Origin: Woeseiaceae bacterium
GTDB taxonomy: Bacteria > Pseudomonadota > Gammaproteobacteria > Steroidobacterales > Woeseiaceae
Assembly: GCA_051007895.1 (NCBI GenBank)
Contig: JBPCYD010000336.1
Span: forward strand, 1,194 to 65,193
Reading direction: 5' to 3'
Length of the DNA stretch: 64,000 nt
The notes beneath the pieces were generated by a model. It worked only from the letters and a program-made list of their open reading frames with translations. It had not been told where the DNA came from and searched no databases. The translations under genes were made by a program, and so were the position numbers. Below, in pieces: positions 9,214-27,636 of this stretch (the stretch's first letter is position 1; each line of letters begins with the position of its first letter).

Positions 9214-10752
9214 ATGAAATCACCTGCCCGGGCTCGCCAGTTTTCACTATTTGCCATCGTTGGATTACTGCTGGTACTGGGTCTTGGGCAGTCCATTCAC
9301 AGACATTTTGTGTACGACGTTCCCTGGATTCCCGGCACCGAAAAATCGATCTGGTCAATCGAGGCCAGCGTCCAGTTCTTTGCTCGCGGTGATCCCGTCA
9401 CCGTTAACCTGCGTCGGCCGAAAGATCAGTCCGGCTTTGCGATTCTCGACGAGAACGGCGCATCGCCGGGATACGGCTTGAGCTTTGTCGATGCTGGCGG
9501 ACAGCCAACCGCACAGTGGACCGTGCGCCAGGCGGATGGGCAGCAGGTTCTCTATTATCGCGCCGAGGTCTTGCAGCGGGATGCCGGAGAATACGACGAC
9601 GAACCACCACCAGATATTCGTTCGCCGAGCTGGGAAGAACCGTATGCGACGGTGGTAGAGGCAGTACTCGACCAGGCAGTCAGCCTGTCCGCCGATCCGT
9701 TCTCCCTGACGCGTCAGCTGATCAGTCAGTTTCGTGCCAGCGATCGCGGGCAGAATGAGCAGCTCCTGCTGGACGTGGTTGGCGGTCAGAATCTGACAAA
9801 CCTGCTCGCCAACATGTTGCAAAGTCGCGGCATTCCGGCGGCCACGGTATACGGACTATTGCTTGAGGATGGGCGGCGGCGCCAGCGTCTCAGGCCGTTG
9901 CTGCGCGTCTGGTCGGAAGAACAGAACGAAGTTTTTCCGCTTGGCATTGAGACCGGCGAAGAGGACCTGCCCCTGTTACTGTGGCAACCCACACAGGGGT
10001 ATGTACTTGATGTAACCGGTGGAACAGGCTCCGAACTGCGCTTCTCGATGATCCGGTCGGAGCTAACCAACTACGGGCAATTGGCCGGCACGCTTGGCGA
10101 AGCTAACGACTGGCTCGGTTTCTCCATTCATTCGTTGCCAATCGAGGAGCAGGCTATGTTTAAAACCATCCTGCTCTTGCCCATCGGTGCACTGGTCGTG
10201 TGCCTGCTGCGAATTCTGGTCGGCTTGAAAACATCCGGCACCTTTATGCCGGTGCTGATCGCTCTCGCGTTTATCGAAACCAGCCTGACAACCGGCCTGG
10301 TTGGCTTCCTCCTCGTCGTCGCCGTCGGACTGATGATCAGGAGTTACATGTCACATCTGAATCTGTTGCTGGTCGCCAGGATATCCGCGGTGATCATCAC
10401 GGTGATTACCATCATTGCGTTATTCAGCGTATTCAGTTTCAGAGTCGGTCTCACCGAAGGACTAAAAATAACTTTCTTCCCGATGATCATTCTTTCCTGG
10501 ACAGTGGAACGTATGTCTATCCTGTGGGAAGAAGAAGGCTGGCGAGAGGTGGCCATCCAGGGTTTCGGAAGTCTTACCACGGCCGTTGCAGCGTACCTGG
10601 CAATGACCAGTCTGCTGGTGCGACATTTGACTTTTAATTTTATCGGACTTCAGTTCGTCGTTCTGGCACTGATCATGATGCTCGGCAGTTATACCGGGTA
10701 TCGGCTATTGGAACTGGTTCGTTTCAAGCCGCTGGCTGAGCAGAACGGGTAG
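9214..10752 (+). CDS. Inactive transglutaminase-like domain fused to a 7-TM module
   Basis: 512 aa: an N-terminal TM, a ~300-aa soluble domain, then about 7 TM helices. The only Cys in the whole protein lies in a TM helix (ALVVCLLRI), so no transglutaminase catalytic Cys is present. The position between the protease and the ATP-grasp gene matches the conserved triad. Confidence 0.7.
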   Translation: MKSPARARQFSLFAIVGLLLVLGLGQSIHRHFVYDVPWIPGTEKSIWSIEASVQFFARGDPVTVNLRRPKDQSGFAILDENGASPGYGLSFVDAGGQPTAQWTVRQADGQQVLYYRAEVLQRDAGEYDDEPPPDIRSPSWEEPYATVVEAVLDQAVSLSADPFSLTRQLISQFRASDRGQNEQLLLDVVGGQNLTNLLANMLQSRGIPAATVYGLLLEDGRRRQRLRPLLRVWSEEQNEVFPLGIETGEEDLPLLLWQPTQGYVLDVTGGTGSELRFSMIRSELTNYGQLAGTLGEANDWLGFSIHSLPIEEQAMFKTILLLPIGALVVCLLRILVGLKTSGTFMPVLIALAFIETSLTTGLVGFLLVVAVGLMIRSYMSHLNLLLVARISAVIITVITIIALFSVFSFRVGLTEGLKITFFPMIILSWTVERMSILWEEEGWREVAIQGFGSLTTAVAAYLAMTSLLVRHLTFNFIGLQFVVLALIMMLGSYTGYRLLELVRFKPLAEQNG

Positions 10753-10753
10753 C

Positions 10754-11701
10754 ATGATGTTTGTATCCCCCGGCCGATTACGCAAACTCGGTATTGTCGG
10801 AATGAACAATCGCAATATCAATCTGATCGGCGAATTGAATCCCCGACACCTTTATCCGCTGGTCGATAACAAGCTCAAGACCAAACTTCTTGCTGCGGAG
10901 AAAGGACTGGCGACGCCGGCGCTGATCGGCGCACTTCGCACGCAGCATGATGTCCAGGGTCTTGAGTCATTCCTGGAGCCTCACGATGGCTTTGCAATAA
11001 AGCCGGCGAAAGGAAGCGGTGGTAAAGGCATTTTGGTAATCGCTGCCCGCCGCGAAGAATTTTTCGTCAAGCCCAATGGACAGGAATTGCCTATCGATGA
11101 AATCCGTCGACATGCGTCAAATATCCTGTCCGGGCTCTTTAGCCTTGGCGGCACGCCGGATTTGGCAGTAGTTGAGGAACTGATAAAACCACATGCCGCC
11201 TATAAGAACCTCTCGGTCGAAGGCGTGCCTGATATCCGCGTAATCGTTTATCGCGGCTTCCCGATCATGGCCATGATGCGACTGTCGACCCGAGAATCGG
11301 ACGGCAAAGCGAATCTTCATCAGGGCGCTATCGGCGTCGGCCTGACAATTTCCAGCGGACGACCGGTCAATGCAACTCAATTCAACCGCCGTGTGGTGGA
11401 GCACCCGGACTCGGGTGCAGACTTGATGTCGATACAGATTTCGGACTGGCCGGATCTCCTCGAAATCGCTGCACGATCAGCCGACGTCACCGGTCTTGGC
11501 TATCTCGGTTCGGATATCGTCGTCGACCGTCGTTATGGCCCGCTACTCCTGGAGTTAAACGCCCGACCAGGACTGGCGATACAGTTAGCGAACAATTGCG
11601 GATTGTCGCCTCGGATTCGGGCCATCGACAACTTAACGCCCGCCTGTTTCCGCCAGGGCCCGAAAATGCGTGTCGATCGCGCGATAGAAATGTTCGATTA
11701 G
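10754..11701 (+). CDS. Alpha-L-glutamate ligase-like (RimK-related) ATP-grasp protein
   Basis: GIVGMNNRNINLI...YPLVDNKLKTK N-terminus and FAIKPAKGSGGKGILVI ATP-grasp P-loop-like segment, followed by LLELNARPGL. The start lies 1 nt after the upstream stop. Confidence 0.8.
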   Translation: MMFVSPGRLRKLGIVGMNNRNINLIGELNPRHLYPLVDNKLKTKLLAAEKGLATPALIGALRTQHDVQGLESFLEPHDGFAIKPAKGSGGKGILVIAARREEFFVKPNGQELPIDEIRRHASNILSGLFSLGGTPDLAVVEELIKPHAAYKNLSVEGVPDIRVIVYRGFPIMAMMRLSTRESDGKANLHQGAIGVGLTISSGRPVNATQFNRRVVEHPDSGADLMSIQISDWPDLLEIAARSADVTGLGYLGSDIVVDRRYGPLLLELNARPGLAIQLANNCGLSPRIRAIDNLTPACFRQGPKMRVDRAIEMFD

Positions 11702-13232: not shown

Positions 13233-14252
13233 CTAGCTTGCCTTGCGCATGACGTTGCGTCCTTCGCGTTTGGCCTGATACAACGCGTCATCGGCCCTGG
13301 ACAGCCAGCTTTGTGCTGATTCGCTACCGCGGATTTCTGCGACGCCCAGTGAGATTGTGACTGCACTATTGGGTACCAATTCGTTCACTTCGACTAGCGT
13401 GCGAAGTTGTTCAGCAAGATGGCAGGCATCTCCCAGGCTCTGTCCGTCGGCAACAACAACGAATTCCTCTCCACCGATTCGGAACAGGCTATCGTTCAGT
13501 CTCGTTCTCAGATTGACGATGCCGACGACTTCACACAGAATCTGATCGCCGACTGCATGTCCGTGTATATCGTTCACCTTCTTGAAGTGATCCAGATCGA
13601 GGACAATAAGCGACGTTGGCAGGCCATTGCGCTCATAAGCATTAATCACTTTTGCCAACTTAACCTGTAGTGCGCGCCGATTTCCGGCGCCGGTCAGCGG
13701 ATCCCTCGTCGCAAGATTCAGCAGCTTTTCCTGTTGCCTGTTATTGATGATGGTGAAGGCGAACGTGAACGCAGTTGTAAGCAAAATCGTGACCGCTACG
13801 GTGCCGGCCACAAACGTCTCCAGGTTCTGGAAAATTACAGGCGTGATAAGCACATTGAAGGTTACCGTGAGAGTGATCGCTTCGAACGGCTTCAGCAAAT
13901 AGAAACAGGCCAGTACCACAGGGAACGCCCAGTAAACCTGCTGCACACCGCCCACGTACATCGTCATTAGCGCGCCGGCAACGGCGATAATTGCGATCGC
14001 AATGCTTGCTCCGCGAACCCGTCGTGTCTTATAGATATAGACGCCAAGCCCTACCAGGCCGACAACGATGACGGTATCAATCGCAGCGACCACCCAGTCG
14101 CCGTCCAGCCATCGCACAACGACGAATGGCGCAACACCCAGGGCCCCTGCGGCACTCAATACTAGCGGCAGGTAACCGGTAAGAGTCTCTCTTGAGGCCG
14201 GCACCTGGGTTATTTCGTGCCACGATTCTATAGCGGATTTATGTCTCGCCAC
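13233..14252 (-). CDS. Membrane-bound diguanylate cyclase (GGDEF)
   Basis: About 5-6 N-terminal TM helices, then DPLTGAGNRR, GGEEF active site and an RLND (RxxD) I-site 5 residues upstream. GTG start with AAGGA upstream. Confidence 0.85.
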   Translation of the reverse strand: MARHKSAIESWHEITQVPASRETLTGYLPLVLSAAGALGVAPFVVVRWLDGDWVVAAIDTVIVVGLVGLGVYIYKTRRVRGASIAIAIIAVAGALMTMYVGGVQQVYWAFPVVLACFYLLKPFEAITLTVTFNVLITPVIFQNLETFVAGTVAVTILLTTAFTFAFTIINNRQQEKLLNLATRDPLTGAGNRRALQVKLAKVINAYERNGLPTSLIVLDLDHFKKVNDIHGHAVGDQILCEVVGIVNLRTRLNDSLFRIGGEEFVVVADGQSLGDACHLAEQLRTLVEVNELVPNSAVTISLGVAEIRGSESAQSWLSRADDALYQAKREGRNVMRKAS

Positions 14253-14401: not shown

Positions 14402-15724
14402 TTATTCCGTACCCCACTTTGTCTCGACTTTAATGCCGATTTTCTGGAGAAACCCGGTCGGGAGAATTCCGCCGGCAGAGATAATGACGGCATCATTGCG
14501 AATCCGGGCCTGCTTTTCGCCCAGCGCAATGACGACTGAGTCGTCTCGAATTTCTTTCACATTTGAATTGAGAACAACCTGTACGCGCTTCGCGCGACTC
14601 ATCGATTCTATTTTTTCCCTGTTCTTTTGCTTCGCCCGGCTAAACGCACCGGAGCGGTAAGACAATGTGACAGTCGTCCCCTCTTCTTCTGCGATACTGG
14701 TCGCCGCCTCGAGAGCGCTGTCGCCTCCACCAACGACCAGCACATGTTGATTGCGGTACTGCTCCGGATCAATCAGGCGATAGGTCACTTTAGGCAGATC
14801 CTCGCCGGGCACCCCGAGTTGCCGCGGTGAGCCACGCCGTCCAATCGAAAGAAGGACAGCACGGGTGTCGTATTCGGCCCTGTTCGTGGTTACCCGGTAA
14901 CCGATCCGGCCTTCTGCTGGCACGATTTCGTCCACGCGCTCATCATAGTTGATTGCGATTCCGGTCTTCTTTTCCACGCCCTGCCAGAAGTCGATGAGAT
15001 CTTCTTTCTGTACTTCCTTGAATTTGGTTTTGCCGATGATGGGCAGTTCTGCAGGCTGTGTCATGACGAGCTTGCGGCGCGGAAAGTGAGCGACGGTTCC
15101 GCCCAGCTCCTCCTGCTCCACGGTAACGACCTTCAGGTTGTCGACCTTGGCCGCCAGCGTTGCTGAAAAGCCTGCGGGGCCGGCACCAACGATCAGCAGG
15201 TCCAGCTCGTTGCTGTGTCCCTCTGCAAGCAGCTGGCTAATGGACGCCATCGCCTGACGACCTTGCTCAATGGCGTTGCGAATTAGCCCCATGCCGCCTA
15301 ATTCGCCCGCAATAAAAATACCGGGCATGTCCGTTTCGAAATTCGGTTTGACGACGGGAAGATCGATACCGCGGGTAGCCGTACCGAATACAAGTGTAAT
15401 CGCGTTTACGGGACAAACGGTCTTGCAGGCACCATGGCCGATACAGTCTGAGGGCCCAATCAAACGGGCCTTTTTGCCAATCATCCCGAGCACGGGATGC
15501 GCATCCTGCTCGGGACAGGCCACCACGCAGGATTTGCAGCCAATGCAAATGGTCGGGTCGATTTCCGGGTGCAGGGTCGGCGGCTCAAGCATACCGGCTT
15601 CCGTTGCCGCCTTTAACGCCTCCAGGCTTTCCCGTTCCAGGCGATTATGACGACGGATATACCAGGCCACGATGGCCAGGATGGGCAAAACGTACAGGTA
15701 GGTTAGGGAGTCCGGATTAAACAT
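14402..15724 (-). CDS. Membrane-anchored 2x[4Fe-4S] ferredoxin domain fused to an FAD/NAD(P) pyridine nucleotide-disulfide oxidoreductase-like domain
   Basis: N-terminal TM helix (YLYVLPILAIVAWYI), cluster motifs CIGCKSCVVACP and CIGHGACKTVCP, dinucleotide folds VGAGPAG and VGGGDSA. The start is uncertain: ATG at 15724 versus TTG at 15811. Confidence 0.7.
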   Translation of the reverse strand: MFNPDSLTYLYVLPILAIVAWYIRRHNRLERESLEALKAATEAGMLEPPTLHPEIDPTICIGCKSCVVACPEQDAHPVLGMIGKKARLIGPSDCIGHGACKTVCPVNAITLVFGTATRGIDLPVVKPNFETDMPGIFIAGELGGMGLIRNAIEQGRQAMASISQLLAEGHSNELDLLIVGAGPAGFSATLAAKVDNLKVVTVEQEELGGTVAHFPRRKLVMTQPAELPIIGKTKFKEVQKEDLIDFWQGVEKKTGIAINYDERVDEIVPAEGRIGYRVTTNRAEYDTRAVLLSIGRRGSPRQLGVPGEDLPKVTYRLIDPEQYRNQHVLVVGGGDSALEAATSIAEEEGTTVTLSYRSGAFSRAKQKNREKIESMSRAKRVQVVLNSNVKEIRDDSVVIALGEKQARIRNDAVIISAGGILPTGFLQKIGIKVETKWGTE

Positions 15725-16089
15725 TTGTTTGCAGTAACGAGTCTTGAGGAAAGCATATCGCGGCCAAGAACAAAGCTCATGAAGCAGTTCACGCAACGGA
15801 AATTCTGACAACCCGCTACAGCGAGTCGACGTCTCGAACGCTCGCTAGCGGTGATTTTTTCTGCCTGTTTTTCGTTTCTCCGTGCGAATGATTCTCATTG
15901 CACCAAAAACTGTCGCCAGTGTGCGACACACATCTGATTTTATTAAGAATATCTGTGACACAGGGGAACCAAGACGAATGACAGAACGTGTATTTATACA
16001 AGGTACACGGACACGGCACCGGATGAGAGTTTCGTTGCCGTACCGCGTCAAGAAAAATCGTTGGTTTGTTTCAGATAAGGCTTGTGCAA

Positions 16090-16956
16090 ATGTCGATCAT
16101 GTTTTGGGGAATTGCGATTACGATGTTAGTTGTCGCGATAGGGGTGCTTGCAATACCCATGCGGGCGGGCAATGCCCGCCAGCCGATTATTGTCGTTATG
16201 CTGCTGGTGCCTGCGATTGCCGTTGGGCTTTATTCGAACATCGGCTCGCCGCAGGCCGCCTCGTTGGGCAGCGATGACAGGCAGGCCCAACCTGCAACGA
16301 GTGGCTCTGCCACAAACCGCGCAGCACAATCTCGTTCAGGACAATCTGTCGGCTCTGTCGCGAGCATGTTAGCGGGACTCGAAGGACGATTGGAACGCGA
16401 ACCGAACGATGCCGGAAGCTGGTTACTACTGGCAAAGTCATACCAGCATCTCAACCGGCTCGAAGATGCCGTCGCAGCCTACGAACGAGCGAGCGAGCTC
16501 GGAAAAAGTGACGTTGCCCTGGAAAAGTTGCTCGTCGAAGCCGGACAGGTAATCCAGCCTCCTGCAGATGATAGCCGCCCCGCGTTGCGTGGCCGGGTAT
16601 CGCTGTCGGCCGATGCCGATGAACTGGTCAGTCCTGATGACACCGTATTCATATTCGCAAAAGAATCTCGCGAACACCGGATGCCGGTCGTTGCTTTGCG
16701 CAGGCCCGCATCGGAATTGCCGCTTGATTTTATCCTGACCGACGACGACGCCATGGTCGCCGGCACGCGACTGGAGGATTACGAACAGCTCGTGATCACG
16801 GCGAAAATTTCACGATCTGGTATGGCGACAGACGCGGTCGATGGACTTGAATCATGGAGTGAAGCTGTTTCTCCGCGCGATCAACAGAAGATTGAACTCG
16901 TGATCACCGGAGGCGCCGCCGACGGTGCGCCAAATTCGGCAGACAACGATGAATGA
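16090..16956 (+). CDS. ccmI: CcmI/CycH-like c-type cytochrome biogenesis (apocytochrome chaperone) protein
   Basis: MSIMFWGIAITMLVVA... two N-terminal TM helices, a TPR segment (GSWLLLAKSYQHLNRLEDAVAAYERASELG) and a C-terminal block DTVFIFAKESREHRMPVVALRRPASELPLDFILTDDDAM...VITAKISRSG typical of CcmI. AAGG lies 9 nt upstream of the ATG at 16090. Confidence 0.7.
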   Translation: MSIMFWGIAITMLVVAIGVLAIPMRAGNARQPIIVVMLLVPAIAVGLYSNIGSPQAASLGSDDRQAQPATSGSATNRAAQSRSGQSVGSVASMLAGLEGRLEREPNDAGSWLLLAKSYQHLNRLEDAVAAYERASELGKSDVALEKLLVEAGQVIQPPADDSRPALRGRVSLSADADELVSPDDTVFIFAKESREHRMPVVALRRPASELPLDFILTDDDAMVAGTRLEDYEQLVITAKISRSGMATDAVDGLESWSEAVSPRDQQKIELVITGGAADGAPNSADNDE

Positions 16957-17879: not shown

Positions 17880-19448
17880 ATGACGGAGACAAGACGAGGA
17901 CTTTTTGGATTACTAGCGATGCTCGCAACAATCACAAGTTTGCCTGCGACTGCTCAGACCATTGAGTCGCTAGTCATGCCGGACGAAGTTATCGCGGGGC
18001 ATGCAGACATCGAGACCGAATGCTCCTTGTGTCACAAGGCGTTCAATCGATCCGAACAGCGTGCTCTGTGCCTCGATTGCCACGAGTTGGTCGCTATCGA
18101 TATAGAGCTGAATCTCGGCTATCACGGCAGAGCCAGTGACGCTCGTGAAGATGAGTGCGCGTCCTGCCACACCGATCACGAAGGGCGAGATGCAGAGATT
18201 GTCATTCTCGACGAAGAAGCCTTTGACCACGACTTCACGGATTTCGAACTGTTGGGTGATCACGCTGAGGCCGAGTGTATCGATTGCCATGTGCAGGAAG
18301 ACAAGCATCGTGACGCTGCAACCGAATGCGGCACCTGTCACGCCGATGACAAGCCACATGCTGAAGATCCCGCGGAGTTATGCACCGACTGCCACAACGA
18401 GTCCGGGTGGGACGATGTTCATTTCGACCATGACACAACGGATTACGAGCTTATCGGGAAGCATGCGGAGACCGCCTGCATTGACTGCCATGAAGTCGAG
18501 AAATTTGCCGACACGCCCGACAACTGTTTCGCGTGTCACGCCGAAGACGATGAACATGATGGACGCAGCGGCGAGCAGTGCGAAAATTGCCACAACCCCA
18601 GCGCGTGGAACGATTCGAGTTTCGACCATGAGCGCGACACGGACTTTTCACTGGTGGGACGTCACGCTGAATTGAGCTGTGATGATTGCCACAGTGACGA
18701 TCCCTTCAGTGATGAGATGGAAATGGCCTGTGTCGGTTGTCACCTGGAAGATGACGAACATGATGGTCACAACGGGACCGCCTGCGCCGACTGCCATTCC
18801 AATGACGCATGGACTGACAGCCAGTTTGACCACGCACGAGACGCTGACTATGCGCTAAACGGCTCGCACGCCGGGGTGGTCTGTGTTGACTGCCATATTG
18901 AACCTGTCTTCGAAACTAAATTGGAGCAAGACTGCGTGTCCTGTCACCGGGACGACGATCCACACAATGGTTCGCAGGGAAACGCCTGCGCCGATTGCCA
19001 CAATGAAACACAGTGGGAAGACGTTCCGTTCTTCGACCACGACCTGACCCGATTTCCGCTGCTCGGCGAGCACGGCAACATTGAATGCGAAGATTGCCAC
19101 GAGACGAAAGTATTCTCGGAAACCGAATCTGAGTGTCTTAGCTGTCACGTTGAGGACGATCCGCACGATGGCGTTTACACCGTTGAGTGCGAATCGTGTC
19201 ATAACCCTGTCGCCTGGGATCTGTGGCTCTTCGACCACAACACGAACACCGATTTCCTGCTTGGCGGCGCGCACCTGGATGTCGAATGCAGCGACTGCCA
19301 CAGAAGCTCCCTCCAATCCATGCAAAAGATCGGTGCTCGCTGCATCGATTGTCATCGAGCGGATGACATCCACGATGGAGAGTTCGGGCCAGACTGTGGG
19401 CGCTGTCATAGCGACACAACGTTTGAAGAAGTGAGGTCATTGCAATGA
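17880..19448 (+). CDS. 21-heme c-type cytochrome made of 7 tandem triheme (c7/c3-like) modules
   Basis: I counted 21 CXXCH motifs in 522 aa. There is an N-terminal signal peptide (cleavage near ATA-QT). FDH anchors at aa 115, 182, 248, 316, 385 and 451 give a ~67-aa module period, and each module carries at least 3 extra His. Confidence 0.95.
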   Translation: MTETRRGLFGLLAMLATITSLPATAQTIESLVMPDEVIAGHADIETECSLCHKAFNRSEQRALCLDCHELVAIDIELNLGYHGRASDAREDECASCHTDHEGRDAEIVILDEEAFDHDFTDFELLGDHAEAECIDCHVQEDKHRDAATECGTCHADDKPHAEDPAELCTDCHNESGWDDVHFDHDTTDYELIGKHAETACIDCHEVEKFADTPDNCFACHAEDDEHDGRSGEQCENCHNPSAWNDSSFDHERDTDFSLVGRHAELSCDDCHSDDPFSDEMEMACVGCHLEDDEHDGHNGTACADCHSNDAWTDSQFDHARDADYALNGSHAGVVCVDCHIEPVFETKLEQDCVSCHRDDDPHNGSQGNACADCHNETQWEDVPFFDHDLTRFPLLGEHGNIECEDCHETKVFSETESECLSCHVEDDPHDGVYTVECESCHNPVAWDLWLFDHNTNTDFLLGGAHLDVECSDCHRSSLQSMQKIGARCIDCHRADDIHDGEFGPDCGRCHSDTTFEEVRSLQ

Positions 19449-22156
19449 CTTTTGCAGAAATAGGTTTAGCGAGAGCGTCAGCGCGAGCCGAACATTTTGG
19501 TGTCGTCCTGCTGATTGCTGCACTGATTGTCACGGTATTCCAGGCACCGGCACACGCACAACAATCATTCGACCACTTCAGTACCGGATTCATTCTGGAC
19601 GGAGCACATACCAACGTCACCTGTGAAGGATGTCACGTCAGTGCGGCGTTTGGCCCGACAGACCAGAGTTGTACCAGCTGCCATTCTCAGGGCGGACTGG
19701 TGCGGGCATCCGCAAAACCAGTCAATCATGTATTGACGTCCGGGGAGTGCTCCGATTGCCACGTCACTGCGAACTGGAGTGCCATAGCCTACATGGATCA
19801 TTCTTCGATCACCGGAAGCTGCGCCACCTGTCACAACGGGATCCAGTCGACCGGGAAGACCCTGGATCACGTATCGTCAGGCGACCAGTGCGATGACTGC
19901 CATACGACCACGGCCTGGCTACCTGCAGTATTTGATCATAGCGGCGTTGTCGGCAACTGCGTGAGCTGCCATAACGGACTCAGTGCGACTGGAAAACACC
20001 AGGCACATATTGCCAGTGGCAATACCTGTGAAAACTGTCACACGACCATCGGCTGGGTGCCGGCCAACTTCGATCATGTGAACGTCTTTGGCAACTGCGT
20101 CAGCTGCCACAATGGCACAGACGCCACCGGCAAGAATCCGACGCACATCCAGTCAACCAATGTCTGCGAGGATTGCCATAGCCCAACAGTATGGATTCCG
20201 CCAATTATGGTCGACCATACGCAGGTTATAGGCACCTGCGGCTCATGTCATGACGGCACAACGGCGACCGGCAAGCACCCGACCCATATCGCCAGCAGCG
20301 ACAGCTGCGATGATTGCCACAGCACGATTGGCTGGGTGCCTGTCAATTTCGATCACGCAAACATCACAGACAACTGCTTTAGCTGCCACAACGGGTCGGA
20401 AGCCATAGGCAAACACCCGCTTCACGTACAGACAACGAACGTCTGTGAAGACTGTCACAGCACAAATGTCTTCTCGCCGGTAACGACTGTTGACCATACC
20501 CAGGTCATAGGTAGCTGCGCCTCATGTCACAACGGCACAGACGCGATCGGCAAGAGCGCCGCTCACGTACGAACAACGGACGTTTGCGAAGACTGTCATA
20601 CGACGGTCGCATTCGTACCCGTAACCATTGTCGATCATACCCAGGTGCTGGGGAGCTGCGGCTCCTGCCACGACGGGGTTACCGCGACGGGCAAAAACCA
20701 GGGGCATATCGCCAGCGGCAACAACTGCGACGACTGCCACAGCACGGTCGGCTGGTTGCCGGCCAACTTCGACCACGTGAATATCATGGGAAATTGTATC
20801 AGCTGCCATAACGGTGTTGATGCAACCGGCAAGGGACCCGCACATATCCAAACTACGGATGTATGCGAAGACTGTCATTCAACGAACGTATTTACGCCGG
20901 CAATGATCGTTGATCACACGCAGGTGCTCGGCACGTGCAGCTCTTGCCACAACGGTACGACGGCGACCGGCAAGAACCAGGGGCATATCGCCAGCGGCGA
21001 TACCTGCGACGATTGTCACAGCACGTTTGGCTGGCTACCGGCAAATTTCAATCACCTGAATATCATGGGCAATTGCATAAGTTGCCACAACGGCACCGAG
21101 GCAACCGGCAAGAACGTCGGGCACATCAATACATCTGACGTCTGCGAAGACTGTCATGCGACCAATGTATTTGCGCCGGTGATGACGGTTGATCATACGC
21201 AGGTGCTCGGCACGTGCAGCTCATGCCACGACGGCCTCACCGCCGTTGGCAAACATCCAACGCATATTCCCAGCGGCAATACCTGCGACGACTGCCACAC
21301 AACCGCAGGCTGGCTGCCCGCGACGTTCGACCACGCAACCATTACGGGTGGCTGCGTCAATTGCCACAACGGCGCTGACGCAACCGGTAAGAATCCAACG
21401 CATCCATTGACCACAAATGTCTGCGAGGACTGCCACTCCACTAACGTGTTCGTGCCCGTTATTGTGGTTGACCACACCCAGGTGCTGGGCGCGTGCGGAT
21501 CGTGTCACGATGGGGTTACGGCGACGGGCAAGTCGCCGAATCACATTACGAGCGGCAACAACTGCGACGACTGCCACAGCACAGTTGGCTGGCTGCCGGC
21601 CAACTTCGACCACGTCAATATTGCGGGTAACTGCTTCAGCTGCCATAACGGCACGGACGCAACCGGCAAAAATCCGACGCACGTTCAAACAACCAACGTT
21701 TGTGAAGACTGCCACACGACTAATGTGTTCGCGCCGGTATTCACGGTTGACCACACCCAGGTCCTGGGATCTTGCTCGACCTGTCACAACGGCGTATCGG
21801 CAGCGGGCCAGAATGCCGGTCACTTTAACACCAACGTCGAATGTGACGTCTGCCATACGTCAAATGGATGGACACCTGCGGACTATCGACATGCGACCCT
21901 GCCGTATGAACCGCAGGACCATCGCGGCAACCTGCAGTGTACCGAATGTCATACGCAGAATTCGGAGTTGATCCCCTGGCAGAACGCTGCGTTCCAACCT
22001 GACTGCGCGGGCTGTCATGCGAATGACTACCGACCCAACAAACACGAAGCTGCAAACGGTGGCAATGAGACTGTAAGTCAGAATCGCGATTGCGCGGGTG
22101 CGTGTCATCAAAAGAACAGTTTCCACAGAATTTCGGACTCGGGTTGGGACAGATAG
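19445..22156 (+). CDS. 36-heme c-type cytochrome: 3 N-terminal hemes, 15 tandem diheme (paired-CXXCH) modules, 3 C-terminal hemes
   Basis: I counted 36 CXXCH motifs in 903 aa. Signal peptide ...APAHA-QQ. The repeated unit is (F/V)DH-x7-C-x2-CH-(N/D)G-x3-(T/I)GK-x3-H-x6-C-x-(D/N)-CH. The start is an ATGA overlap with the upstream stop. Confidence 0.95.
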   Translation: MTFAEIGLARASARAEHFGVVLLIAALIVTVFQAPAHAQQSFDHFSTGFILDGAHTNVTCEGCHVSAAFGPTDQSCTSCHSQGGLVRASAKPVNHVLTSGECSDCHVTANWSAIAYMDHSSITGSCATCHNGIQSTGKTLDHVSSGDQCDDCHTTTAWLPAVFDHSGVVGNCVSCHNGLSATGKHQAHIASGNTCENCHTTIGWVPANFDHVNVFGNCVSCHNGTDATGKNPTHIQSTNVCEDCHSPTVWIPPIMVDHTQVIGTCGSCHDGTTATGKHPTHIASSDSCDDCHSTIGWVPVNFDHANITDNCFSCHNGSEAIGKHPLHVQTTNVCEDCHSTNVFSPVTTVDHTQVIGSCASCHNGTDAIGKSAAHVRTTDVCEDCHTTVAFVPVTIVDHTQVLGSCGSCHDGVTATGKNQGHIASGNNCDDCHSTVGWLPANFDHVNIMGNCISCHNGVDATGKGPAHIQTTDVCEDCHSTNVFTPAMIVDHTQVLGTCSSCHNGTTATGKNQGHIASGDTCDDCHSTFGWLPANFNHLNIMGNCISCHNGTEATGKNVGHINTSDVCEDCHATNVFAPVMTVDHTQVLGTCSSCHDGLTAVGKHPTHIPSGNTCDDCHTTAGWLPATFDHATITGGCVNCHNGADATGKNPTHPLTTNVCEDCHSTNVFVPVIVVDHTQVLGACGSCHDGVTATGKSPNHITSGNNCDDCHSTVGWLPANFDHVNIAGNCFSCHNGTDATGKNPTHVQTTNVCEDCHTTNVFAPVFTVDHTQVLGSCSTCHNGVSAAGQNAGHFNTNVECDVCHTSNGWTPADYRHATLPYEPQDHRGNLQCTECHTQNSELIPWQNAAFQPDCAGCHANDYRPNKHEAANGGNETVSQNRDCAGACHQKNSFHRISDSGWDR
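19793..21874 (+). repeat. In-frame tandem coding repeat with 138-141-nt half-unit and 279-nt full unit (diheme and tetraheme modules)
   Basis: VDHTQV anchor codons start at 20210, 20489, 20630, 20909, 21188, 21467 and 21746, giving spacings of 279, 141, 279, 279, 279 and 279. The first 47 nt of the units at 20909 and 21188 differ at 3 positions. An identical 32-nt run occurs at 20714 and 21551. Confidence 0.9.
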
Positions 22157-22162
22157 TCATCA

Positions 22163-24619
22163 ATGAGTGCCTGCTTCCAAAAACCGATAGCACTGCTTTC
22201 GTTAGTCCTTCTTTCAGCAGGCACATTTGCCGCCCCTGGCTTTATTGTTGGTTCGAAGATTAGGGGAGGCACGAATGTTGCCGAGATTACGATTCAATTC
22301 GCCTGTGCGGTTGAGTATGTCGATCATTTTCCGGCCAACGAATCCGATCGAGTAAGAATTCAAATCGAATCGACGACGTTGTGTAACGGCGTCCCGCCGA
22401 CTGTTGCCTACGCGCGCGAGCAACATCGGCCCGCAGATGCGGAGATAGCAAAGCTGCTTGAAATCACTTACGACGGCGAATCCGAGACCGACCAGGCATT
22501 AACACTGGCTTTTAGCGAAACGGTCAGCTTTGGAATCGAACAGAACGGCACGTCGAGCGACATGGTTATTCGCGTTTATCCAAACAAAGAAACGCAAGTG
22601 AAACAGCCGATTCCCCGATCTACCTCCGTGCGCACCGTCCAGGACACCGCTGAACCGTCATCCTATGTGATTAACCTGTCATCCAGTCAGATTCCACATG
22701 CACCGTCCGAAATGCAGGCCGTTTCTGTTTCAGCCGAACTCAAGGTTTTCGAATCTGAGGTCTTGCTTGCAGGTTCTACCTGGTATCGGTTGCGAGTCGG
22801 AACTTTCGAAAGCACCGGGGATGCACAAACCGAGCTTCGCAAACTACGTGCTCAGTATCCCGCGGCCTGGATTGACCGCGCACCGGAGTCGACGAACGGT
22901 GAAATCGGCAATGAACTAGCGGAAAGCGAACCCTTGCTCAATGACGCCGGTGACGTCGCAGCGGCCTTCGCGACGATGGGGCTTGATCAGATCGACCAAC
23001 TGATGGTGGACGCTCGATTGGCAATGGTGGCAGGTGAGACGTCCCGGGCTATACAAATTTACACCAAGGTTTTGCGAGGCCCATCCAGCGACCGGCACGC
23101 GCAGGCACAGGAATACCTGGCACTGGCGCGGGAAAAGAACGGACAAAAGGCGCATGCCAGGTCTGAATACCAGCGCTATCTGCAGCTTTACCCGGACAAT
23201 GAAGGTACCGCCCGGGTGCAGCAACGCCTCGCAGCATTGCTGGCCAGCGAGCGTCAGGTGGTGTCCGCCCCGGCAAGCACGCCGGGGACCGCAACAACCG
23301 GCAGAAGATCTGTTCGCAACCCGAGCGCTTGGCGGTTTCAGACGTTCTTTTCCCAGTACTATCGACGCGACGTCAATCAGCCCAACGAACAGGCTGACAT
23401 TGTCAGTCAGTCGGCACTCTATTCCGACATCAATCTGGACATCAGGCGGCGCGGCCAGAGATTCGATTTCAGCAGCAGGCTTTCTGCCGGCTATCGCAAT
23501 GATTTTCTCGACGAAGATCAGGGCTCGGGCGACCAGGCACGGGTTTCATATGCATACGCTGATCTTGCCGACGCCGAAACGGGACTGCGGGGAAGAATAG
23601 GTCGACAATCCAGAAACACCGGTGGCATCCTGGGCCGATTCGATGGTCTGAACATTGGCTACCAGGCAAGTGAACGCATACTGGTCAACGCAGTTGCGGG
23701 AATTCCGGTCAATTCAGCGTCAGACAGTATCGACTCTGAACGCACTTTCCAGGGATTGAGCGTCAACTACGGTCCGCTGCTCGACAACCTCGAGTTGGGC
23801 GCGTATTTCATTAGCCAGAGTATCGAGGGCATTGAAGATAGAACCGCGACCGGCGCCGAGTTTCGCTACTTTGGCGAGAACCACAACCTCTGGGGTCTCG
23901 TTGATTACGATACTTCGTACAGCGAACTTGGCAGTGCATTCCTGCAGGGCAGCTGGCGAGTGACGCCACGTCTCAGTGTACACGGCTCGGTTGACCGGCG
24001 GCACACCCCGTACCTGAGTTCGCGTAACGCGATGATTGGGCAACCAGTGCAAACATTCGCCGAGATGCTCGTGCTGTACTCCGAGGCCGAGATTCATCAG
24101 TTCAGCATTGACCGCTCGCCGCTCAGCGAGTCGTACACGATCGGATTGTCGCAGTCGTTCTCGCCCAGGCTGCAAATCAATTTTGATGCCAATCAAACGA
24201 CGATCGACGCTACGCCGGAATCGGGGGGTGTGTTGGCGATTCCGGAATCGACGTTTCGGTATGTTGCGACCACGCTGGTAGCAAGCAGCCTGATCACGGA
24301 AGGCGATGTACTGATGGTTTCTCTCCGGGCGTCAGATTCAAATACGACGAAGGTCTCCTCAATGACCCTGGATACTCGTTTCCCTCTGGGCAGATCCTGG
24401 CGTGTCAATCCGCGCCTACGTGTTGATCGACGACAAATTCTGTCCGATTCGTCCATTGAGTGGTTGTATACGCCCGGCCTGCGAATACAGATTCGTAACA
24501 GCCAGCGGTACCGCATCGATCTTGAGGCAGGCAAGCGTTTCTCGGAGCGCGACTCCCCAATACTGAATCTGGATCGCGAATCGTATTTCGTCAACCTCGG
24601 CTACCAGGTGTTTTTTTGA
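22163..24619 (+). CDS. Large outer-membrane protein: signal peptide, N-terminal beta-rich domain, SPOR-like domain, TPR region, C-terminal beta-barrel
   Basis: Signal peptide LLSLVLLSAGTFAAP. SPOR-like YVINLSS...WYRLRVGTFESTGDAQTELRKLRAQYPAAWI (about 22658-22876). TPR-like helices at about 22985-23236. About 430 aa of alternating amphipathic strands end in the OMP beta-signal NLGYQVFF. The start lies 6 nt after the cytochrome stop. Confidence 0.75.
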   Translation: MSACFQKPIALLSLVLLSAGTFAAPGFIVGSKIRGGTNVAEITIQFACAVEYVDHFPANESDRVRIQIESTTLCNGVPPTVAYAREQHRPADAEIAKLLEITYDGESETDQALTLAFSETVSFGIEQNGTSSDMVIRVYPNKETQVKQPIPRSTSVRTVQDTAEPSSYVINLSSSQIPHAPSEMQAVSVSAELKVFESEVLLAGSTWYRLRVGTFESTGDAQTELRKLRAQYPAAWIDRAPESTNGEIGNELAESEPLLNDAGDVAAAFATMGLDQIDQLMVDARLAMVAGETSRAIQIYTKVLRGPSSDRHAQAQEYLALAREKNGQKAHARSEYQRYLQLYPDNEGTARVQQRLAALLASERQVVSAPASTPGTATTGRRSVRNPSAWRFQTFFSQYYRRDVNQPNEQADIVSQSALYSDINLDIRRRGQRFDFSSRLSAGYRNDFLDEDQGSGDQARVSYAYADLADAETGLRGRIGRQSRNTGGILGRFDGLNIGYQASERILVNAVAGIPVNSASDSIDSERTFQGLSVNYGPLLDNLELGAYFISQSIEGIEDRTATGAEFRYFGENHNLWGLVDYDTSYSELGSAFLQGSWRVTPRLSVHGSVDRRHTPYLSSRNAMIGQPVQTFAEMLVLYSEAEIHQFSIDRSPLSESYTIGLSQSFSPRLQINFDANQTTIDATPESGGVLAIPESTFRYVATTLVASSLITEGDVLMVSLRASDSNTTKVSSMTLDTRFPLGRSWRVNPRLRVDRRQILSDSSIEWLYTPGLRIQIRNSQRYRIDLEAGKRFSERDSPILNLDRESYFVNLGYQVFF

Positions 24620-25224
24620 TGATCATAAATGCCAAGATATTCAAGCGATCCGGCATGTCCGGGCTTATCGGGCTAGTCGTCGTTTGCATCCTGGCTGGAT
24701 GCGCGGCATCCGCTCCTGAGATCAGGAACAAACTGGATCCGTCAACCGGGGTAACGATTACCTACAGCAGCGTGCCGCTGATCATGTATCGGGAAGACCC
24801 GGCGCAGGCGGCGTTCGCACGAAATTACGTACACGTCGGCCCGATCCAGGTAAATCGAAGTGGCAACTATCAGTATTTTCTGTGGCTTGGCGTATGGAAC
24901 AATATGCAGGATCTCAATTCAACGTCGCATCGGGACGGACTCGGCTCAATCGTTATTTTCGCCGATGGCGAACCGCTTTCGCTCGAGATAAGCGGCTGGA
25001 CACCGGACGCCATCGGCACGAGTGAGCCCGTTTACCTGAAGCCGGTTGCGTCATCCGCCGACGCCTACTACCGGGTTACTGCGGACCAGATCAGACTAAT
25101 TGCAGAGGCCACAGATATTCGCTTACGAACCTCGGGTGCAAAACCTCGGGAATTCGAGCCATGGGACGGTCAATTGGCCGCGCGAAACGATTTGCAGGAA
25201 TTTTTGCGGCGGACTTTATTCTAG
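24619..25224 (+). CDS. Small lipoprotein of unknown function (last gene of the cytochrome operon)
   Basis: MIINAKIFKRSGMSGLIGLVVVCILAGC lipobox. The start overlaps the stop of the outer-membrane gene (TGATG). No family recognised. Confidence 0.6.
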   Translation: MIINAKIFKRSGMSGLIGLVVVCILAGCAASAPEIRNKLDPSTGVTITYSSVPLIMYREDPAQAAFARNYVHVGPIQVNRSGNYQYFLWLGVWNNMQDLNSTSHRDGLGSIVIFADGEPLSLEISGWTPDAIGTSEPVYLKPVASSADAYYRVTADQIRLIAEATDIRLRTSGAKPREFEPWDGQLAARNDLQEFLRRTLF

Positions 25225-25274
25225 ATCGTTCAATTGCGATACGATGCAGCATCATATTCGTAACGAGCGTGACT

Positions 25275-26123
25275 ATGTCCGGCGACAGAAAAAACTACCG
25301 ACCGATGGAGGATTCCATCCGGACCGATCTGCAGGGAAGTATGCGCTACGGCGACTACCTGCAGCTCGACAGGATCCTGCAATCTCAACAGCCGCTGTCG
25401 TCAGAACATGACGAAATGCTTTTCATTATCATCCACCAGGCGAGCGAACTCTGGTTGAAACAGGCCTGTTTCGAAATTGCTGCCGCTATCGGCAACGTTC
25501 AAAACTCTAATTTCCGGCACGCATTCAAGGTCATCTCGCGCGTCAAGCAAATTCTCAATCAAATGGTCCAGTCGTGGGGCATTCTCTCGACGCTTACGCC
25601 GGTCGACTATCACAGCTTTCGCGACCGCCTGGGCAGCGCCTCGGGATTTCAGTCATATGGCTATCGGAAACTCGAGTTTCTGTTGGGGAACAAGAACGCC
25701 GATATTCTCAAGGTTCATAGGGATACTGGATTCGCCTATGAAGAACTGGAACGGGTTCTGCATGAACCGTCGCTTTACGACGAGGTGATCAGAAAACTGC
25801 ACGAGGCCGGCTTCGACATCGATTCGACCGTAATCGAGCGCGATGTCACACTGCCATACGAGCCGAATGACTCCGTCAAACAGGCCTGGCTGACGATTTA
25901 CAAAAACGCGGACAAAAACTTCGAGTTTTATGAGTTGGCAGAGAAGCTGGTCGATATAGAGGACGCGTTTCAGCAATGGCGATTCAAGCACATGTACACG
26001 GTACAGCGCATAATCGGCCAGCAGGTCGGAACCGGGGGTTCTTCCGGTGTCAGTTTCCTGAAGAAGGCGCTGGATATCAGCTTTTTTCCTGAACTCCTTA
26101 GCCTGCGTTCAGAACTCCCCTGA
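25275..26123 (+). CDS. kynA: Tryptophan 2,3-dioxygenase
   Basis: YGDYLQLDRILQSQQP.S..HDEMLFIIIHQASELWLK and GSSGVSFLKK blocks match bacterial TDO. The ATG at 25275 is preferred over the track start at 25161. Confidence 0.85.
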   Translation: MSGDRKNYRPMEDSIRTDLQGSMRYGDYLQLDRILQSQQPLSSEHDEMLFIIIHQASELWLKQACFEIAAAIGNVQNSNFRHAFKVISRVKQILNQMVQSWGILSTLTPVDYHSFRDRLGSASGFQSYGYRKLEFLLGNKNADILKVHRDTGFAYEELERVLHEPSLYDEVIRKLHEAGFDIDSTVIERDVTLPYEPNDSVKQAWLTIYKNADKNFEFYELAEKLVDIEDAFQQWRFKHMYTVQRIIGQQVGTGGSSGVSFLKKALDISFFPELLSLRSELP

Positions 26124-26172
26124 GAGCGAATCGCATTTACCTGGTTGATACCGGCATTGCGGAGAGGGCTCA

Positions 26173-27636
26173 ATGACTGCAGAAATCACCGACGTCATCA
26201 TCGTCGGTGCAGGACTGTCCGGTATCGGCTCAGCCTGCCACCTGCAACAGAAGTGTCCCGACAAACATTATCTGATTCTGGAGGGCCGTGAATCGGTCGG
26301 TGGCACGTGGGATCTGTTTCGTTACCCGGGAATACGATCCGACAGCGATATGCACACCTTAGGCTATGAATTCAAACCGTGGCGAGCGCAGAAAGCCATC
26401 GCCGATGGCCCTGCAATCCTCGACTACATTAAAGAGGCTGCCGCGGAACACCAGGTCGGGGAGCATATCCGCTATCAGCATCAGGTCAGGAAGGCTGACT
26501 GGTCCAGCGATGAGCATTTGTGGACGCTCGAGGTAACCGACAGCAAAACGGCTGCGGTCAAAAAATTCAAATGCAATTTTTTGCTGATGTGCGCCGGATA
26601 CTACGACTACAAGGGCGGATACGAACCGCAGATTAGCGGTCGAGCAGACTTTCAGGGCGACATTGTGCACCCACAGGAATGGCCGGAAGACCTGGGCTAC
26701 GGCGACAAGAATATAGTCGTGATCGGCTCCGGAGCTACGGCAGTAACGTTGATTCCGGAGCTTGCCAAAGAGGCTAAACACGTCGTGATGTTGCAGCGAT
26801 CGCCAACTTACATGGCATCCATGCCCGACACGGACCGCATCGCAAACTTCTTGCGCAAAGTACTACCGGAAAAATGGGCTTATACGGTAACCCGCTGGAA
26901 AAATGTCAAGCTCCAGCAGATCGTGTATTACAGTACCCGTGTCGCACCCAAATTCATCAAAAGAAAGCTAATCAAGCGGGTACGCAAGGAACTGGGCGAA
27001 AACGCCGATATCGAAAAAAACTTCACACCTCTGTATGACCCCTGGGATCAAAGACTTTGCCTGGTGCCCAATGGCGACCTGTTTGAGTCGCTACGGTCCG
27101 GCAGAGCTTCTGTCATAACAGACAAGATATCTGCGATTACCGCCAGCGGGATTCGCCTGGAATCCGGCCGTGAGGTTGGCGCAGATATCATTGTTACAGC
27201 TACCGGCCTTAGTTTGTGCCTACTTGGCGACGTGCAGGTCTCGGTTGATGGCGAATCGGTGAATTTCGCCGAAAAATACTCCTACAAGGCGATGATGTTT
27301 TCGGATGTGCCGAACCTGGTTTCAATCTTCGGTTACATCAATGCTTCATGGACACTACGAGCCGACCTCGTCGCGGACTATGCGTGCCGACTGATCAATC
27401 ACATGACGATCGCGAATTCCCGACAATGCACGCCTCGGCTGCGTGGAAGATATCGGGATATGAACGCAAAGCCGTGGATTGAAAATTTCTCGTCCAACTA
27501 CATTCAACGCAAGCAACATCTGCTGCCTAGACAGGGCGATCGTCACCCCTGGCTCAATACACAGAATTACTCAATGGAGAAGAAACTGATTCGCGACAGC
27601 GATGTCGTGGACGATGTCCTTGAGTTTCTCGGCTAG
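26173..27636 (+). CDS. EthA-like class B flavoprotein (Baeyer-Villiger) monooxygenase
   Basis: GAGLSG and GSGATA Rossmann motifs, BVMO fingerprint FQGDIVHPQEWP, and long colinear similarity to my recollection of EthA (GGTWDLFRYPGIRSDSDM, LQRSPTY, WDQRLCLVPNGDLF). GGAGAGGG RBS. Confidence 0.85.
   Translation: MTAEITDVIIVGAGLSGIGSACHLQQKCPDKHYLILEGRESVGGTWDLFRYPGIRSDSDMHTLGYEFKPWRAQKAIADGPAILDYIKEAAAEHQVGEHIRYQHQVRKADWSSDEHLWTLEVTDSKTAAVKKFKCNFLLMCAGYYDYKGGYEPQISGRADFQGDIVHPQEWPEDLGYGDKNIVVIGSGATAVTLIPELAKEAKHVVMLQRSPTYMASMPDTDRIANFLRKVLPEKWAYTVTRWKNVKLQQIVYYSTRVAPKFIKRKLIKRVRKELGENADIEKNFTPLYDPWDQRLCLVPNGDLFESLRSGRASVITDKISAITASGIRLESGREVGADIIVTATGLSLCLLGDVQVSVDGESVNFAEKYSYKAMMFSDVPNLVSIFGYINASWTLRADLVADYACRLINHMTIANSRQCTPRLRGRYRDMNAKPWIENFSSNYIQRKQHLLPRQGDRHPWLNTQNYSMEKKLIRDSDVVDDVLEFLG

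Follow-up and report, generated by a model that had tools for sequence, protein, structure and literature searches.

A gene at positions 17880-19448 (+) of a 64,000-nt stretch of DNA, called here the window, encodes a c-type cytochrome with 21 CXXCH heme-binding motifs. This 21-heme protein probably serves a Woeseiaceae-like gammaproteobacterium as the periplasmic multiheme cytochrome of a porin-cytochrome conduit of the PCC3 type. All coordinates below are window positions unless another locus is named. PCC3 clusters are defined by an inner-membrane protein (IMP), a periplasmic multiheme cytochrome (MHC) with a median of 21 hemes, an extracellular MHC with a median of 34 hemes, and a porin (PMC5566968). 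The IMP, of about 300 aa, has five transmembrane (TM) helices, with the motif WX3HX13H on both TM3 and TM5 and SGXXG on TM4, and the cytochromes have a low residue-to-heme ratio and repetitive sequences (PMC5566968). In Sideroxydans lithotrophicus ES-1, the genes are ordered IMP (Slit_1446), periplasmic cytochrome (cyt-c_p, Slit_1447), extracellular cytochrome (cyt-c_e, Slit_1448) and porin (Slit_1449) (PMC11429942). The PCC3 periplasmic proteins of ES-1 contain 21 and 24 motifs (PMC8788666), and those of Gallionellaceae contain 21, 24 or 27 (Hoover et al., PMC9900912).

We assigned the window cluster to PCC3 because its IMP motifs, heme counts, barrel and gene order match the description of He et al. 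2017. The assignment was made on gene content, order, motifs and heme counts, and the reference clusters (Slit_0867-0870 and Slit_1446-1449 of ES-1, and that of Leptothrix cholodnii; PMC5566968) entered the comparison by description only. The two cytochromes carry 21 and 35 hemes, against medians of 21 and 34; both have repetitive sequences with roughly one heme per 25 residues, and Thr, Ser, Ala and Gly abound in the outer one. The genes opening at 16925, 17880, 19445 and 22163 follow the order IMP, periplasmic MHC, extracellular MHC and porin, as in Slit_1446-1449. The IMP motifs and the gene for a barrel protein of 818 aa (p818) are present in the cluster as defined. A hydropathy scan of the IMP gave strong segments at residues 39-55, 71-87, 103-119, 132-148 and 291-307, and a weak one at 183-199. 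The sequence WFSAH-x13-H is found at residue 103 (segment 3), SGVVG at 144 (segment 4) and WHILH-x13-H at 285 (segment 5). Fifteen sequences, taken from Gammaproteobacteria, a Desulfuromonadaceae metagenome-assembled genome (MAG) and a Chloroflexia MAG, all keep the W, H, H, W, H, H residues of these motifs and the SGxxG motif unchanged. The IMP matched no Pfam family, and no relative of it was found in the PDB even at E<=10.

The window cluster also differs from the published ones. Its host belongs to Woeseiaceae-like marine Gammaproteobacteria, its 21-heme protein is extremely acidic, and its barrel protein has an N-terminal SPOR/TPR extension of about 360 aa. It is accompanied by a CcmI-like gene, a lipoprotein gene and a gene for an FeS-flavoprotein, none of which appears in the main text of PMC5566968. 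In the literature searched, no paper links PCC3 with Woeseiaceae, and the supplements of He et al. 2017 gave no Woeseia entry. Earlier publications already describe the gene family, its architecture and the idea that the protein spans the periplasm; what is new here is a complete and strongly conserved PCC3 cluster in an ecologically important lineage of Woeseiaceae type.

The 21-heme gene is the third of six co-oriented genes whose boundaries overlap or lie a few bases apart, the start of the 35-heme gene overlapping the 21-heme stop (ATGA). An earlier interpretation of this DNA, made from its letters and open reading frames (ORFs) and called here the sequence-only reading, had left this operon unused; it is the decisive context for the gene. 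Conservation of the cluster was examined in a synteny scan with one genome per species, which yielded 15 loci. At 11 loci from MAGs of Woeseiaceae or unclassified Gammaproteobacteria, the genes for the CcmI-like protein, the IMP and the 21-heme protein occur in that order; two further loci are truncated. Every such locus that reaches far enough also has the genes for the 35-heme protein, p818 and a 202-aa predicted lipoprotein (p202), and the cluster proteins are 37-91% identical across these loci. The nearest relative is MAG MFD03551.bin.1.156, with 84% identity in the cytochrome, and a Logan contig shows a gene order identical to that of the window cluster. On this basis the window is assigned to a Woeseiaceae-like gammaproteobacterium from a marine or sediment habitat.

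The arrangement extends to other phyla, in which an IMP-like gene neighbours an MHC with three-heme periodicity and a second large MHC. In a Desulfuromonadaceae contig, the IMP gene is followed directly by a 21-heme cytochrome gene and then by that of a larger cytochrome. A Chloroflexia contig encodes 18-heme and 36-heme cytochromes, with the IMP about 1.5 kb away. A PCC3-like cluster is also carried by plasmid pEMTOL02 of Emticicia oligotrophica DSM 17448 (Bacteroidota; locus L018, 81299-89995), where the order is CcsA, IMP (with both WX3HX13H motifs), FeS-flavoprotein, 23-heme cytochrome, 40-heme cytochrome and a 539-aa hypothetical protein. Identity between the Emticicia proteins and those of the window is 45.6% for the FeS-flavoprotein, 27% for the IMP and 29% for the cytochrome.

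The 21-heme protein contains 42 Cys, 45 His and 6 Met. All its heme motifs are of the CXXCH type, and no CX3-4CH or CXXCK variant was found in it. In 20,000 shuffles of its own residues, the mean was 0.28 CXXCH and the maximum 4, against 21 observed, and the pattern is therefore not an effect of composition. The sequence-only reading had counted 21 motifs in 522 aa, about one heme per 25 residues, which the ORF and the motif count confirmed (24.9 residues per heme). The FDH tripeptides that it had used as module anchors stand exactly where it had placed them, at residues 115, 182, 248, 316, 385 and 451. CXXCH spacing cycles through 16-18, 18 and 32-33 residues, and the canonical repeat can be written FDH-x10-GxH-x4-CxxCH-x11-13-CxxCH-xxDDxH-x7-CxxCH. 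Modules 2-7 are 34-50% identical to one another. The N-terminal unit (residues 27-114) has three CXXCH motifs and three extra His, lacks FDH and is only 24-27% identical to the other units. The heptamer of three-heme modules proposed earlier thus holds for heme content (7 x 3), but the protein is made of six canonical repeats and one divergent head, not of seven equal modules. The gene contains no tandem repeat at the DNA level, so that the duplications must be old.

We then aligned the 21-heme protein with 102 homologues of 500-530 aa and 57-84% identity (103 sequences in total). Sixty of the 63 Cys and His columns of the CXXCH motifs are invariant, and the remaining three show at least 90% conservation. 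Outside the motifs, exactly 21 His are invariant as well, three per unit, which in the canonical repeats are those of FDH, GxH and DDxH. They stand at residues 41, 82, 100, 117, 128, 160, 184, 195, 226, 250, 262, 294, 318, 330, 362, 387, 398, 429, 453, 465 and 498. No Met within the repeats is invariant or nearly so in this alignment. Since the invariant non-motif His equal the CXXCH motifs in number (21 each) and the repeats lack a conserved Met, all 21 hemes are predicted to be bis-His ligated, in agreement with what the sequence-only reading had proposed from the single protein.

The protein has a single hydrophobic segment (residues 7-25), belonging to the signal peptide, and no other TM segment; a lipobox Cys is absent from this signal peptide. 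The signal peptide opens with MTETRRGLFGLL (17880-17910), and the TRRGLF contained in it resembles a twin-arginine motif. The apo-forms of c-type cytochromes are exported unfolded by the Sec pathway. A twin-arginine reading was set aside, the N-terminus being unconserved among the homologues, and the resemblance is probably fortuitous. The mature protein has about 496 residues and an estimated mass of ~55.5 kDa as the apo-form and ~68.5 kDa with 21 hemes. It contains 127 Asp+Glu against 25 Lys+Arg, which gives a net charge of -102 and a pI of 4.3, heme propionates excluded. Strong acidity is common to all 102 close homologues (acidic excess of 58-107), whereas relatives with 24 to 39 hemes from other lineages do not share it and are neutral to basic.

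The size of the family members varies by three-heme steps. Among the 120 best matches to the 21-heme protein, 98 of the 102 relatives of about 520 aa have 21 CXXCH motifs, and the 15 relatives above 530 aa carry 24, 27, 30, 33, 36 or 39, apart from one with 38. These longer relatives keep the motif spacing and the divergent head of the 21-heme protein; 21 hemes is the commonest size of the family in the lineage of the window. One search recovered 4335 clusters of metagenomic relatives at E<=1e-5; HMMER, run exhaustively against 1.84 billion representatives, gave 996 clusters (50% identity) at E<=1e-30. Among the best representatives (150 listed, 149 analysed), the autocorrelation of CXXCH spacing peaks at lag 3 in 134, and motif counts range from 12 to 94. 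This lag-3 periodicity marks the three-heme unit, as judged from sequence, as the building block from which a large superfamily evolved. The relative with most motifs, P0241 (2321 aa, lag-3 autocorrelation of 0.93), has 94 CXXCH, and further relatives carry 78-81; the P0241 count exceeds the maximum of 85 hemes cited by He et al. 2017 (PMC5566968), and a repeat assembly artefact is possible in this case.

The sequence-only reading had compared the 21-heme protein with the c7-type polymers of Geobacter, in particular GSU1996, and had proposed a search with c7/c3 models. The Pfam model Cytochrome_C7 (PF14522, cut-off 24.8 bits) does match the protein, with 92.3 bits over six stretches, and single repeats or junctions score 28-36 bits against it. 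The Pfam match joins the last motif of an FDH module to the first two of its successor, a register shifted by one heme. When the repeat profile was aligned by hhalign with PpcA (whose sequence was checked and is identical to 1OS6), the FDH register gave 35-68% probability and the other two registers 13-18%, with alignments that cover little beyond the three CXXCH motifs. The c7 order of ligands and motifs in PpcA, H-H-M-H-M-M (M standing for CXXCH), is matched neither by the FDH register (H-H-M-M-H-M) nor by the Pfam register (H-M-H-H-M-M). The curated nanowire_3heme model (TIGR04257, cut-off 40 bits) found no match in the whole protein at E<=10, and a two-repeat fragment reached 13 bits (E 0.085). 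Searching PDB sequences with the 21-heme protein by phmmer gave nothing significant. Profiles of the whole family and of one repeat matched HmcA, nine-heme cytochromes, MtrF, OmcA, GSU1996, NrfA/B/H and c3 in the PDB; these matches are weak and mostly driven by CXXCH motifs, and HmcA, MtrF and OmcA match just as well as GSU1996 does (3ov0, E 8e-4; 3ouq, E 2.7e-5).

Like GSU1996, GSU0592 and GSU2210 (3OV0), the 21-heme protein is one polypeptide with three-heme units in tandem (about 70-80 aa each), predicted to be periplasmic and to hold its hemes in a wire-like row. In GSU1996, every domain contains one His-Met heme (PMC10138318), in contrast to the predicted bis-His ligation of all hemes here. 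Membership of the GSU1996 family as curated was rejected on the nanowire_3heme score, and no His-Met heme is predicted. The proposed likeness to the Geobacter proteins therefore stands for the tandem three-heme layout and the Pfam hit, but not for the nanowire model, the ligand order or the His-Met heme. The 21-heme protein behaves as a polymer of three-heme units, perhaps with a distant c7 kinship.

Around the 21-heme gene, the operon encodes partners with recognizable features (Table 1). The CcmI-like protein is probably an apocytochrome chaperone. The 35-heme protein consists of 11.4% T, 9.1% G, 8.0% A and 7.3% S and is also rich in Asn. Its gene contains a 279-bp tandem repeat (93 aa, four hemes) in 4.4 copies with 72% identity at 20528-21768, and its length differs among Woeseiaceae loci. 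Tested against TIGR04257, this protein passes the cut-off with 67.5 bits. In the AlphaFold2 model of p818 (pLDDT 78), about 22 antiparallel strands extend over residues 390-816, with a helical insert at 620-650, and the sequence ends in ...YQVFF, with a terminal Phe. Foldseek matched the barrel half of p818 to usher, porin and TonB-receptor barrels (344 matches at E<=1e-3, the best at 2e-8). The periplasmic extension of p818 comprises a beta domain, a SPOR peptidoglycan-binding domain and TPR helices. Such a SPOR and TPR extension is unusual for the porin of a porin-cytochrome complex and suggests anchoring to peptidoglycan. No family match was obtained for p202.

Table 1. Features of the PCC3-type cluster and of the neighbouring FeS-flavoprotein gene in the window
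Feature	Position	Strand	Remarks
Membrane-anchored FeS-flavoprotein	14402..15811	-	two [4Fe-4S] clusters and a TrxR-like/ferredoxin-NADP-reductase-like flavin domain
CcmI/CycH-like protein	16066..16956	+	two TM helices, TPR, CycH Ig-like domain
Conserved IMP, ~302 aa	16949..17857 (ATG; ORF opens GTG 16925)	+	predicted di-heme b-type membrane partner
21-heme c-type cytochrome	17880..19448	+	522 aa + stop, ATG start; predicted periplasmic multiheme cytochrome of the PCC3-type cluster
Sec-type signal peptide, residues 1-26 (...LPATAQ/TIES)	17880..17957	+	read from sequence, cleavage site by eye
Divergent N-terminal three-heme unit, residues 27-114	17958..18221	+	CXXCH at 48, 64, 93; invariant distal His 41, 82, 100
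Six canonical three-heme repeats, 66-72 aa	18222..19445	+	residues 115-181, 182-247, 248-315, 316-384, 385-450, 451-522
35-heme c-type cytochrome, 903 aa	19445..22156	+	35 CXXCH; predicted extracellular multiheme cytochrome
818-aa outer-membrane protein (p818)	22163..24619	+	signal peptide, N-terminal beta domain, SPOR, TPR helices, C-terminal barrel
202-aa predicted lipoprotein (p202)	24616..25224	+	lipobox LAGC

A scan of the rest of the window for other respiratory or extracellular electron transfer genes turned up housekeeping genes only, namely those for ABC ATPases, MscS, a sigma-54 activator, GGDEF/EAL proteins and a Na+/H+ exchanger, and the Rfam search found nothing in the window. A GGDEF diguanylate cyclase gene (13233-14252, -) adjoins the FeS-flavoprotein gene on the side opposite the cluster, and a gene for a GGDEF-EAL protein lies farther off (60028-62232, -). 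The cluster is followed by genes for a tryptophan 2,3-dioxygenase and a flavin monooxygenase (25161-27636), as it is in the closest loci (L001 and L008); these two enzymes appear unrelated to electron transfer.

A mechanism can be proposed for the cluster. The 21-heme protein would be exported by Sec and then receive its hemes by the Ccm pathway, perhaps aided by the adjacent CcmI-like chaperone. The mature protein would form an elongated, closely packed linear heme chain. By analogy with MtrA and GSU1996, each heme contributes ~0.8-1 nm, so that 21 hemes would give a chain of ~17-21 nm, about as long as the periplasm is wide. At one end the chain would dock on the inner-membrane di-heme b-type IMP, and at the other it would enter the p818 barrel and touch the 35-heme surface cytochrome. 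Electrons would then pass between an inner-membrane redox pool and an extracellular donor or acceptor, solid or chelated, without diffusible periplasmic carriers. Flow could take place in either direction; Woeseiaceae are aerobic or denitrifying and often autotrophic, and for them uptake from reduced minerals is proposed. Woeseiaceae on inactive sulfide chimneys have multiheme cytochromes that group with the Leptothrix ones, and were proposed to take up electrons through them (PMC6850669); a recent study of Woeseiaceae annotated "mtrCAB" for iron reduction instead (PMC12175321). A rod able to span the periplasm, as suggested by the sequence-only reading, is plausible, but the idea was already in the literature for the PCC3 family (PMC5566968, PMC9900912), the AlphaFold models of Hoover et al. 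being long, mostly linear and possibly periplasm-spanning (PMC9900912). The GSU1996 wire has itself been described (PMC10138318).

The 21-heme protein could instead be a periplasmic electron capacitor, a soluble store that would buffer respiration as donors and acceptors fluctuate, with no fixed bridge between the membranes. This role has been described for GSU1996 (PMC10138318) and was raised for PCC3 by Hoover et al. (PMC9900912), and the tandem three-heme architecture, the weak profile similarity to 3ov0 and 3ouq and the Pfam c7 match agree with it. GSU1996 is treated as a free periplasmic protein in PMC10138318, where no partners of the kind encoded with the 21-heme protein (a membrane protein, a barrel, an outer cytochrome) are described for it. 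The 21-heme gene, however, is translationally coupled to those of a b-type membrane protein, a second giant cytochrome and a barrel, in an order fixed across phyla, which argues for a stoichiometric complex and against a free capacitor. We consider a pure storage role unlikely; capacitor and bridge roles can coexist.

A second alternative concerns the cytoplasmic side of the conduit. Electrons could pass between the FeS-flavoprotein and the b hemes of the IMP, in a NAD(P)H-linked module of Hmc/NOX type, and the wire would then be coupled to NAD(P)H or ferredoxin and not to quinone. Wherever a Woeseiaceae locus extends to that side, the FeS-flavoprotein gene stands beside the cluster (66-91% identity). 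In Emticicia it lies inside the cluster (9779-11101 of locus L018), between the IMP homologue and the 23-/40-heme genes, and its product there is more similar to its window counterpart than the IMP and the cytochrome are to theirs. Its flavin domain resembles ferredoxin-NADP reductases of YpdA/TrxR type, and the His pattern of the IMP is that of ferric-reductase/NOX domains, as noted by He et al. (PMC5566968). On the other hand, the FeS-flavoprotein gene ends a ccmE-F-G-H-I operon at locus L017 (12819-14132), pairs with the CcmI-like gene in the window and has CcsA nearby in Emticicia. This company of ccm and ccs genes makes a role in cytochrome c maturation at least as likely. Moreover, the FeS-flavoprotein was not found within the DNA examined of the Desulfuromonadaceae and Chloroflexia loci. 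NAD(P)H coupling is thus improbable in our view, and the FeS-flavoprotein is possibly an accessory component, either a helper of cytochrome maturation or a cytoplasmic redox partner of the IMP.

The conduit also shares features with better known systems. As in MtrCAB/MtoAB (6R2Q), a multiheme cytochrome facing the periplasm is predicted in an outer-membrane barrel, with a surface cytochrome opposite. However, the 21-heme protein reaches 34.7 bits with the DmsE/MtrA model (TIGR03508), against a cut-off of 192.2, and falls short of the OmcA/MtrC model. It would bring 21 hemes to the periplasmic side in place of 10, which could make shuttles such as CctA, FccA or MtoD unnecessary, and a dedicated inner-membrane b-type protein is found here in place of CymA. 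HmcA (1Z1N, 2E84), which gave the best sequence-profile matches, is likewise a periplasmic many-heme subunit tied to a transmembrane redox complex. It is built of c3-like four-heme and three-heme blocks, and the score of the 21-heme protein with its model (NF045713) is 39.9 bits, one tenth of the cut-off of 400; no HmcB-F genes occur here. That the 21-heme protein is merely a long member of one of these characterised decaheme or hexadecaheme families is very unlikely: although HmcA and the DmsE-family decaheme model gave the best NCBIfam scores and Hmc cytochromes the best PDB profile matches, membership of both the MtrA/DmsE and HmcA families was rejected on the curated cut-offs, the HmcA alignments consist mainly of CXXCH motifs, and the neighbourhood has no MtrB-, HmcB-F- or DmsAB-type genes.

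Several points weigh against a functional PCC3 conduit with a periplasm-spanning heme chain. The AlphaFold2 model of the 21-heme protein, built heme-free, is of moderate quality (pLDDT 72, pTM 0.31), its N-terminal unit being least confident, and a Foldseek search of the PDB with this heme-free model returned no match at E<=10. The extracellular location of the 35-heme protein is assumed. The MtrB barrel has 26 strands, and that of p818, with about 22 strands in the model, may be too narrow to sheath a heme chain. Homology to the ES-1 and Leptothrix proteins is presumed from their described features. To our knowledge, no experiment has demonstrated a function for any PCC3 cluster. In ES-1, both PCC3 clusters are down-regulated on Fe(II) (PMC8788666).

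The strongest form of the proposal holds that the Woeseiaceae cluster is an active, hard-wired trans-envelope circuit in which the 21-heme chain bridges the periplasm and the IMP is coupled to the FeS-flavoprotein and not to the quinone pool. We regard this combination as a long shot. If true, it would provide a route of NOX or Hmc type, coupled to NAD(P)H and leading to or from minerals, which is undescribed for any porin-cytochrome system, and the finding would gain weight only if a NAD(P)H-coupled or periplasm-bridging mechanism were demonstrated. Emticicia oligotrophica, which is cultured, may be tractable for functional tests of a PCC3-like cluster. The 21-heme protein, with its seven times three predicted bis-His hemes, offers a clean and regular model of a long single-chain heme wire that could serve biophysics and bioelectronics. 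PCC3 is one of the largest predicted bacterial electron conduits, and Woeseiaceae are among the most abundant bacteria of marine sediments. Given thousands of metagenomic relatives, it could be common for cosmopolitan bacteria of the seafloor, usually described as heterotrophs or sulfur oxidisers, to exchange electrons directly with minerals.

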